Below are positions 62,158 to 63,881 of a stretch of 64,000 bases of DNA, one piece after another; position 1 is the first letter of the stretch, and every line of letters begins with the position of its first letter. Both the position numbers and the translations under genes were made by a program. Below the pieces are notes generated by a model. That model was given only the letters and a program-made list of their open reading frames with translations. It searched no databases and was not told the origin of the DNA. The stretch is from assembly GCF_058153355.1 (NCBI RefSeq), contig NZ_CM177019.1, one strand, 5' to 3'.

Positions 62158-63881
62158 AAAAGTGGCTCTTCCGCAACCTGGGTGAAGATTTTCATGCCAG
62201 TGGACTCATTACCCTCCGCCTAAGTAGTTCAAGTCCGGCTCGACCATACATCTGGCGTATCAGCACCTTCAGGCGATTTACATGACCTTCGACAACACCA
62301 GTACTCCAGCGACTGCTGATTGCCTCACATATAGCCGCAGCATCAGCTTCCATCCCCGCAGCTACGCACCGAAGTTCTGCTGAGCCGCTTTCGTGGACCC
62401 GAGTGAACCAGCTGCTTAGCTGTGATTTATTTTAGGTTTTCAGAATACGGTAGAACTCGAGTACCAGTTGCTGCGCTATTTTCAACTCCGGTTCTTTTTC
62501 ACACATCAGACTAATAAATCGGAAAGCATAATTTTCTTCACCCCTGATTATTCTCCAGGGCATCAACCAGCGGCTTACCCGGGACACTGAAGGAAGTCTT
62601 GCGGCAGTAGTAACCGGTGGGATCCAGCCTTTACGCCATTTGGCAACAGCATCCCTGACGATGGTTTCACTGCCTGTAACCCCCCTGGCCACCATTTCCC
62701 GCCATATCCGGCCGGAGTTATAATTACCACATTCTCGTTGCTCTTTTAACCACTCCCTCCATGGGTCCAGAAGCCCTCGCTTTGGAGGCCTAGTTGACAT
62801 TTCAGGGAATGTTCCTGAACCCACCCAGCGACTGACTGTCACTCGCGACAGGCCTGTAATACGGGATATTTCCCTGAAACTACATCCCTTGTTATGCAGG
62901 GCCATAACCTCTGTCCAACGCTGATGCCGTTTTTTGCGGATGTGCTGTTTAAGGCGTTCCAGACGACGGAGCGATGCTACAGGCACAGATATTTCTGGCT
63001 CAGGTGATTTCTTCAGTGATAACTCTCTGACAACAAGACGTATCAGAGGCATATGTCTGTACATCATTCGTTCAGGCTCATCACCAATATTTTTTAGCAG
63101 GTGCCATCGATCGGCCACCTGTCTGGCCTGAGGTGCACCTTCACGTGCTGCTGTCGCATAGACTCCACTGCGATCACGCGAGACAACCTGTATTTCCGGA
63201 TATTTTCTGAACCAGGTCGCCAGCGTACGCTGATCACGGCCGGGAAGCAGGACGAGGGGACGGTGAGTATCAAGATTGACTATTAACATACCGCAGCAGT
63301 GGCCCCGATGCCACGCCCACTCATCAATACCGACATGAGGCGCGCCTGACTGTTTCGTCTCCGGGGTATTGATAACCCTGCGAAGAAGAGTATCAGCACT
63401 GCAACGGAGACCCGCTGCCGTTGCAGCCCGTTTTCCAGCCTCACCTCCAGCTATTAATCCCAGTTGACGTTGTAAATTTTGTAACGCCTGTGAAGACTGC
63501 TGGTGTGAACCGGCGAAGGGAGCAAGCGACTCGGCAAAAATTTTACGTGAACAAGCCGGGTTACGGCAGTACCAGTGGCGGACGGAAAATACAAGCCATA
63601 GCGTCTGCCCTGAGCAGGGTAGATGCTGTATCCGGCGCCGACGACAACTATGAACAGAGTCGCTACGCTTAAAGCATTCAGGACATTGTGCTGTTTTGCG
63701 TTTTCCGTGGAGATGGAGGGTTATACCGTCAGAGCTAATAATTTGTCGACTGCATCGCCATCCGCAAGGTAACTGTAGAAGTGTCTTAAGAGAGTGCATT
63801 GCGTTGCCCATAACTTAAAACAGCTTAGATCCTTGTTCGCCAGAAAGTTTCATCCATTTTCTTCCACCCAGGTTGCGGAAG
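62158..63881 (-). mobile_element. ISL3-family insertion sequence (about 1.7 kb) with roughly 30-bp imperfect terminal inverted repeats
   Basis: aaaagtggctcttccgcaacctgggtgaag at 62158-62187 and its near-perfect inverse complement at 63852-63881 bracket a single ISL3-type transposase gene; no matching 8-bp direct repeats seen. Confidence 0.6.
62192..63811 (-). pseudogene. ISL3-family transposase with one in-frame ochre codon
   Basis: N-terminal zinc-finger (CPECFKR...CRNPACSRKIF), DDE region (VGIDEWAWHRGH...VVSRDRSG), inserted HTH (SFREISRITGLSRVTVSRWV); TAA at 62432-62434 is followed in the same frame by 79 more codons carrying the conserved C-terminus (WSTGVVEGHVNRLKVLIRQMYGRAG). Confidence 0.65.

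Follow-up and report, generated by a model that had tools for sequence, protein, structure and literature searches.

Canonical insertion sequences (IS) of the ISL3 family encode a transposase of about 400–440 residues, have terminal repeats starting with the family consensus GGCTCTT, and produce 8-bp target duplications. In the IS21 family, the tandem helix-turn-helix module of the transposase IstA (HTH-1/HTH-2) reads the terminal repeats of the element (PMC10122671), and 5-bp target duplications have been reported for IS5376 and many other members (PMC11208146). We examined a stretch of 64,000 nucleotides from contig NZ_CM177019.1 of RefSeq assembly GCF_058153355.1 (hereafter, the window), in which an initial annotation made from the letters alone had described an ISL3-family element whose transposase gene carries a single in-frame stop codon. 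Comparison with other copies indicates that this element is an old, inactivated, ISEc38-like member of the ISL3 family. It very probably occupies a fixed position in an E. coli genomic island, was inactivated before the island allele diversified, has been drifting since, and had one or both of its flanks replaced. As a by-product, the check yielded an observation that concerns the ISEc38 family rather than the window copy itself, namely, two nested sets of ends, of which the outer one resembles the ends of IS21 elements.

Identity of the inactivated transposase gene

Minus-strand translation confirmed that the transposase frame runs from an ATG at 63811 to a TGA at 62192–62194 and is broken by only one internal stop, the TAA at 62432–62434, with 459 codons before it and 79 codons after it (Table 1). 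With the stop read through, the product scores 347.6 bits against the NCBIfam model NF033550 (transpos_ISL3; cut-off 180) and 95.8 bits against the Pfam catalytic domain PF01610 (DDE_Tnp_ISL3; cut-off 23), and the zinc ribbon PF14690 (Zn_ribbon_ISL3) reaches 29 bits (cut-off 25.5), so that the family assignment of the initial annotation stands. Its proposal that the 79 codons beyond the stop encode the catalytic C-terminus holds as well: these codons match positions 168–239 of the DDE_Tnp_ISL3 model (E 4e-8) and contain the motif SxGVVEGHVNRLK around E508. Judging from known ISL3 motifs, the catalytic residues of the ISEc38-like transposase would be D163, D213 and E508, the last of which we take to be the catalytic glutamate.

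Unlike the uninterrupted frame of an active ISL3 element, that of the window copy has the TAA upstream of the codon for the catalytic glutamate. A C-to-T change at Gln-460 would have created the TAA and would end translation before E508; because translation stops ahead of this residue, the product should be unable to catalyze transposition. In principle, an intact ISEc38 elsewhere in the cell could still move the window copy in trans, as both sets of ends are present.

Across its full 1,764 bp, the element shows 95.5% DNA identity to copies designated ‘ISL3-like element ISEc38 family transposase’ by PGAP; its closest intact relatives reside mostly on IncF plasmids. The ISfinder rule assigns two copies to the same IS at more than 90% DNA or more than 95% protein identity. 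By DNA identity, the window copy is ISEc38; we prefer ‘ISEc38-like’ because protein identity is only 93%. The copy shares with ISEc38 the 539-codon frame, the inner repeats and the 21-bp arms, and differs from it in the TAA at codon 460, 38 amino acid substitutions, the lack of a target duplication, and a fixed chromosomal site instead of plasmids. It is the only ISEc38-like copy in the window. The RefSeq annotation of the identical sequence in strain S88 reads ‘ISL3 family transposase, internal stop’; the window copy itself is ordinary and already flagged in public annotation as a dead IS.

Ends of the element and the missing target duplication

The outer ends of the element, at 62143 and 63906, are the exact points where flanks diverge among copies located at unrelated sites. 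The terminus GGYTCTTCC, which is of the GGCTCTT type found in the ISL3 family, lies 21 bp inside each outer end (GGCTCTTCCGCAAC at 62164 and GGTTCTTCCGCAAC at 63885 on the opposite strand). The inverted repeats, previously called near-identical, match at 27 of 29 positions (62158–62186 vs. 63863–63891), and the same terminus was found at the ends of related copies; beyond these positions, pairing persists at a lower level as far as 62142 and 63907 (43 nt at 81%). The boundaries originally assigned to the element, 62158–63881, had to be abandoned, as they fit neither the core nor the armed unit, with 63881 falling inside the right repeat and 62158 coinciding with no natural edge.

Neither pair of boundaries is accompanied by a target duplication. 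The 1,764-bp unit is flanked by ...GGCCATAC and GATGTGAA..., and the core by GCAAAAGT and ACTTTTCA, which are inverted rather than direct repeats of each other, so that the 8-bp duplication typical of ISL3 is absent from the window copy, although it is present in two ISEc38 copies that consist of the core only (L062 and L063). The possibility that the arms represent the duplicated target of the core was rejected, because the 8-bp stretches that border the core at its two ends are inverted, not direct. An empty site was not found either: among 5,426 complete E. coli genomes, no record joins the left and right flanks of the window copy. Because both a target duplication and an empty site are lacking, we conclude that one or both original flanks would have been replaced after insertion, likely through recombination with another copy or an adjacent deletion, and the element probably sits where a rearrangement joined two unrelated modules. 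The suggestion in the initial annotation that the absent duplication reflects recombination or deletion of flanking sequence therefore appears reasonable; what does not hold is the implication that this absence is special to the window copy, since most of the surveyed ISEc38 copies lack a duplication.

Age and decay of the stop codon

Compared with the intact ISEc38 copies, codon 460 differs by a single C-to-T transition that turns CAA (Gln) into TAA. The exact 61-mer centered on the TAA occurs in 2,345 complete E. coli records. Three diverged alleles at the same site, L007, L005 and L006, which are 99.4, 98.5 and 98.0% identical to the window copy, respectively, all carry the TAA, and each has accumulated one extra stop, at codons 113, 88 and 66, respectively; the window allele, with one stop only, is the least decayed. 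Checking other copies for the TAA thus showed that the stop is not strain-specific. Among the pseudogene alleles, differences are distributed over codon positions 1, 2 and 3 as 8:10:9 and 11:14:10, in contrast to the 6:11:27 split, with its excess at third positions, among diverged intact ISEc38 copies. This even spread implies neutral decay of the dead alleles. Between the window copy and ISEc38, there are 31 synonymous and 38 non-synonymous codon differences, and two of the substitutions, N504T and K518I, fall in the motif around the catalytic glutamate.

The best reconstruction is that the stop arose before the island allele diversified and spread through E. coli, and that the gene would have drifted neutrally ever since; because the diverged alleles share the TAA and their differences are neutral, the gene appears to have been dead for as long as the island allele has diversified. 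Two observations weigh against this scenario. In one genome, that of strain Z1322HEC0010 (L003 1502–3265), an intact, CAA-bearing ISEc38 occupies the same chromosomal site; this copy is closer to plasmid copies (99.3% identity) than to the window copy (95.1%), which points either to later conversion of the site by an active copy or to an intact allele of older date. Furthermore, the window allele is 100% identical across phylogroups (S88, 55989, O104:H4 and O145:H28), which might mean that the island is not very old but has spread horizontally in recent times. Even if the island spread recently, however, the stop would be old because diverged alleles share it. In strain 1332KP (NZ_CM173849.1), the same dead IS copy is split by an insertion of IS1414 (IS256-like).

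Two nested mobile units in the ISEc38 family

We surveyed target duplications at about 25 distinct ISEc38 insertion sites. An arm-plus-core 27-mer proved too strict as a pattern for scanning genome contigs and gave no match, and the element is missing from the E. coli representative genome; with a relaxed pattern, 29 stretches were obtained. Two kinds of unit were distinguished. The core-only copies L062 and L063 are 1,722 bp each and are flanked by perfect 8-bp duplications, TAAAAACT and AAAAAATA, respectively. The empty site of L063 is the ordinary E. coli yceK-mdoH intergenic region, which is 100% identical over 400 bp and contains a single AAAAAATA. Most other copies are armed, 1,764 bp in length, and the undisturbed ones have 5-bp duplications outside the arms: ATGAG (L064), GATTC (L066; 6 bp if read as TGATTC), CCTGG (L068), ATTGT (L069), ACAAC (L012), CCTCC (L020), CTCCG (L016; 6 bp if read as CCTCCG), CCATG (reconstructed from the left flank of L023 and the right flank of L022, on one plasmid) and, in an armed relative from Serratia sp. 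DD3, GGTGC. For L068, the empty site is an intact IS66 tnpB gene with a single CCTGG, again 100% identical over 400 bp. The core-only copy L063 and the armed copy L068 encode an identical 539-residue protein.

The arms are of two types, A and B, and either type can lie beside either core end, with all four combinations occurring. Copies of the AA and BB types lack target duplications and have flanks in common with AB and BA copies, and therefore appear to arise by exchange between copies; such recombination among copies would explain why most ISEc38 copies lack a duplication. Two other sources of the arm combinations were rejected: mismatch correction between paired repeats, because polymorphisms of the inner repeats never co-convert, and retention of 5' flaps from a circle junction, because there would be no template for the flap complement and because the copies with duplications are AB or BA, not AA or BB.

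The arms also exist without the core. At one locus in 514 E. coli genomes, for example, in SMS-3-5 (L077 2501–2547), an IS3-family gene contains a 47-bp shell made of arm A, GATCC and arm B (TGTCAACGACGGATGAAAAGT GATCC ACTATTGCACCGTTCGTGACA), with the duplication GACAG on either side. An arm followed by the same GATCC is found in Serratia (L039 4252–4277), and in E. coli, Serratia, Rahnella and Erwinia, solo arms are followed by a conserved GATCC or GACCC. The shell is unlikely to derive from an armed ISEc38 by simple internal deletion, since GATCC cannot be obtained from GGYTC...GAGCC by one deletion and since the arm with GATCC is present in Serratia.

Alternative explanations for the window copy

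The initial annotation regarded the element as intact until very recently, on which view the element would still be active but for a TAA that arose very recently in one strain or was introduced by a sequencing error. The presence of one stop in 539 codons between two intact inverted repeats is what such a history predicts, but the TAA recurs in independently sequenced records (the 2,345 that share the 61-mer) from several serotypes and hosts, not from one recent clone, the diverged alleles with the TAA carry further stops, the protein departs from active ISEc38 at 38 amino acid positions, including two within the catalytic motif, and substitutions among the alleles are neutral. This explanation is accordingly extremely improbable. 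It is also very improbable that the 459-residue product, or a read-through protein, has been retained for some role, such as inhibition of ISEc38 transposition through DNA binding, which would make the stop a feature of a domesticated gene. In favor of such a role, about half of E. coli genomes still carry the locus, the shortened protein would not lose the zinc ribbon, the IstA-like helix-turn-helix module or two of the three catalytic residues, and truncated transposases act as inhibitors in other IS families. However, the stops of the other alleles at codons 66, 88 and 113 remove almost the whole protein, differences are even over the three codon positions, TAA terminates translation efficiently in E. 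coli, no recoding signal was seen, with no search aimed at one, and retention is explained by linkage inside a widespread island.

As for the missing duplication, it could simply be the normal state for ISEc38 and, as such, uninformative on rearrangement, given that, at more than half of the approximately 25 distinct sites, neither boundary is accompanied by a duplication. Against this stands the fact that clean insertions do duplicate their targets, with 8 bp at the core-only copies L062 and L063 and 5 bp at armed copies at ten independent sites, and that two clean insertions have verified empty sites. Moreover, the copies without duplications can be traced to exchange: L022 and L023 each share one flank with L004, and their other flanks reconstitute the CCATG duplication. 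We therefore consider it very unlikely that ISEc38 ordinarily inserts without duplication. An old copy with replaced flanks, drifting at a fixed site, remains by far the best account of the window element.

An IstA-like module and IS21-like arms

The ISEc38 transposase contains the ISL3 zinc ribbon and the DDE_Tnp_ISL3 domain, and its core ends with the GGYTCTTCC terminus, as in canonical ISL3 elements, with which the core-only copies also share the 8-bp duplication. It differs in being about 135 residues longer than the NCBIfam model (residues 31–535 correspond to model positions 1–368), an extra length that includes an IstA-like tandem helix-turn-helix insert, and most copies differ further in having 21-bp arms outside the terminus followed by 5-bp duplications. 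About 200 residues separate the two halves of the DDE domain, and the IstA-like module is located between the second aspartate and the glutamate. The NCBIfam model transpos_IS21 matches at positions 2–100 with E 2e-13 in the window protein and 1.6e-16 in intact ISEc38, and residues 11–102 of the IS5376 IstA (PDB 8q4d/8b4h) match the ISEc38 insert with E 2e-11. Among the four named IstA contact residues, R31 and T92 are kept in the insert, whereas K95 is replaced by R and K32 by V.

An exhaustive protein search showed that the insert is common to many ISL3-type proteins of about 530–580 residues, in which it occupies the same relative position and is 36–45% identical in this segment; we accordingly dropped the idea that the IstA module was captured recently. 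When the inserted domain was used as the query in a word-indexed protein search, the matches were all fragments of ISL3 transposases, and IstA proteins were absent from them.

The arms themselves resemble IS21 ends. The ends of IS5376 read TGTTAAAGCCGATGATAAAATCCCC... and TGTCAAGGCCGATTATTTTTTCCCC..., and the arms of the ISEc38 group TGTCAACGACGGATGAAAAGT and TGTCACGAACGGTGCAATAGT, with TGTTAGTACCGATGTAAAAAT in Budvicia and Rahnella. ISEc38 arms begin with TGT and end with ACA, and, like the 23-bp L1/R1 repeats of IS5376, they have a GC-rich block that precedes an A-rich stretch; in the best case, 16 of 21 positions agree between the arm TGTTAGTACCGATGTAAAAAT and the IS5376 L1 repeat TGTTAAAGCCGATGATAAAAT. 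In Rahnella (L047 10280–10330), on the D side of the Budvicia element (L029) and in Erwinia dacicola (L045 5746–5805), one core end is preceded by a pair of arm-like units, in the order arm with GACCC, second unit, core; the two units are spaced by about 23 bp, as in the IS21 L1/L2 repeats. Armed ISEc38 copies elsewhere make 5-bp duplications, the length reported for IS5376 and many IS21 members; the window copy has none. Other traits separate these elements from IS21: most ISEc38 copies have one repeat per end, not two, and the window element has no rve catalytic domain and no IstB or other second gene, the match to the IS21 model being confined to positions 2–104 of 294, so that by IstA rve domain and IstB it is not a member of the IS21 family.

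Three distant members of this ISL3 subfamily, L079, L081 and L082, were inspected, and several members lie in or near IS21 elements. L079, which is located inside istB, has a perfect 44-bp repeat whose outer 21 bp are laid out as arm A (TCAACG, 13 nt, GGTTC), with an 8-bp duplication, CTTATGGT, outside the 44-bp repeat. L082 adjoins istB and a 68-bp TGTAGTGCC...GGCACTACA palindrome, and L080 is an ISEc38 copy in the istA gene of ISEc12. The sample is too small to tell target preference from chance, and either may account for these locations. L081 has no arm and a 6-bp duplication.

Genomic setting

The segment with its flanks is present over at least 80% of its length in 2,779 of the 5,426 complete E. 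coli genomes and is 100% identical in many chromosomes. To the left lies a metabolic module comprising rikA, an amidotransferase, a DMT transporter, a phosphotriesterase-like gene and a ggt fragment, and to the right, a CP4-type prophage remnant with zinc-ribbon genes and a gene of the inovirus Gp2 family; in S88, the IS is located between the frameshifted gamma-glutamyltransferase fragment and two zinc-ribbon genes. This fragment ends about 30 bp short of the IS, not at its edge. It carries a 1-bp deletion (LRVEKG, then out of frame) and, compared with E. coli Ggt, a small internal deletion (VTGS-W-IITTVLQ). A complete IS2 is present at 58442–60775 (InsD-like open reading frame (ORF), 59484–60389; InsC-like ORF, 60347–60757), at a place that, in S88, is taken up by the 3' portion of the DMT transporter gene and the beginning of the phosphotriesterase-like gene; both neighbors are cut short in the window, the DMT transporter to 202 residues, and the phosphotriesterase-like ORF starts at TTG.

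Table 1. Features of the ISEc38-like element and its left neighbor (window coordinates)
Feature	Position	Strand	Basis or remark
Whole mobile unit, 1,764 bp, TGTCA...TGACA, core plus one 21-bp arm per side	62143–63906	−	Alignment with plasmid and chromosomal copies
ISL3-type core, 1,722 bp, GGCTCTTCC...GGAAGAACC	62164–63885	−	L062 and L063 are exactly the core unit; terminus motif located in the window
Outer arm, type B variant, TGTCACGAACAGTGCAAAAGT, end distal to transposase start	62143–62163	+	
Outer arm, type A, TGTCAACGACGGATGAAAAGT, end proximal to transposase start	63886–63906	−	
Inner inverted repeat, distal, GGCTCTTCCGCAACCTGGGTGAA	62164–62186	+	
Inner inverted repeat, proximal, GGTTCTTCCGCAACCTGGGTGGA	63863–63885	−	21 of 23 positions as in the distal repeat
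Transposase pseudogene, 539 codons plus terminal TGA, broken at codon 460	62192–63811	−	Translation, Pfam/NCBIfam
ISL3 zinc ribbon, residues 40–84	63560–63694	−	Pfam Zn_ribbon_ISL3, E 1e-6
N-terminal DDE part, residues 160–257	63041–63334	−	Pfam DDE_Tnp_ISL3, model 1–105, E 5e-16
Inserted tandem helix-turn-helix module, residues ~302–398, homologous to the N-terminal DNA-binding region of IS21 IstA	62618–62908	−	NCBIfam, PDB
In-frame TAA, codon 460	62432–62434	−	CAA (Gln) in intact ISEc38 copies
79 post-stop codons, C-terminal DDE part including predicted catalytic E508 (62288–62290), motif STGVVEGHVNRLK	62195–62431	−	Pfam
Frameshifted C-terminal fragment of a gamma-glutamyltransferase paralogue (left neighbor)	61820–62112	−	Pfam G_glu_transpept 420–465; S88 RefSeq pseudogene

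A possible ISL3/IS21 hybrid and its implications

Together, the IstA-like insert and the outer arms raise the possibility, which we put forward tentatively and at somewhat less than even odds, that the ISEc38 group is a natural ISL3/IS21 hybrid, in which the insert would let the element's own transposase use the arms, yielding two modes of transposition. We prefer this reading, in which the element's own transposase would act at the arm tips via the insert, because a matching module is encoded in cis and because the arms co-vary with the core. It would be unusual, and this speaks against such use of the arms, for one catalytic domain to give both 8- and 5-bp duplications. The alternative is that the arms form a tiny IS21-type shell, moved in trans by resident IstA/IstB together with the ISL3 element that it encloses. 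Across genera, the arms stay with the element. In ISEc12, the sole IS21-family element inspected, which lies beside one ISEc38 copy, the ends show no likeness to the arms. The window copy holds all parts of the putative hybrid in decayed form. In the searchable literature, which does not cover ISfinder, we found ISEc38 only in lists from mobile element finders, and neither its two sets of ends nor a link between ISL3 and IS21 was found described.

Taken by itself, the window copy is of little weight and can at best tag a widespread E. coli island and record a past rearrangement. If, however, a single transposase can act on two nested sets of ends that give different target duplications, or if an ISL3 element rides inside a minimal IS21-type shell, IS boundaries set by the ISL3 terminus would be wrong for most ISEc38 copies, and annotation tools would mis-call both the ends and the target duplications. 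The family would then provide a simple natural system for studying the exchange of DNA-binding modules between transposase families, and the same system would bear on what sets the length of target duplications.

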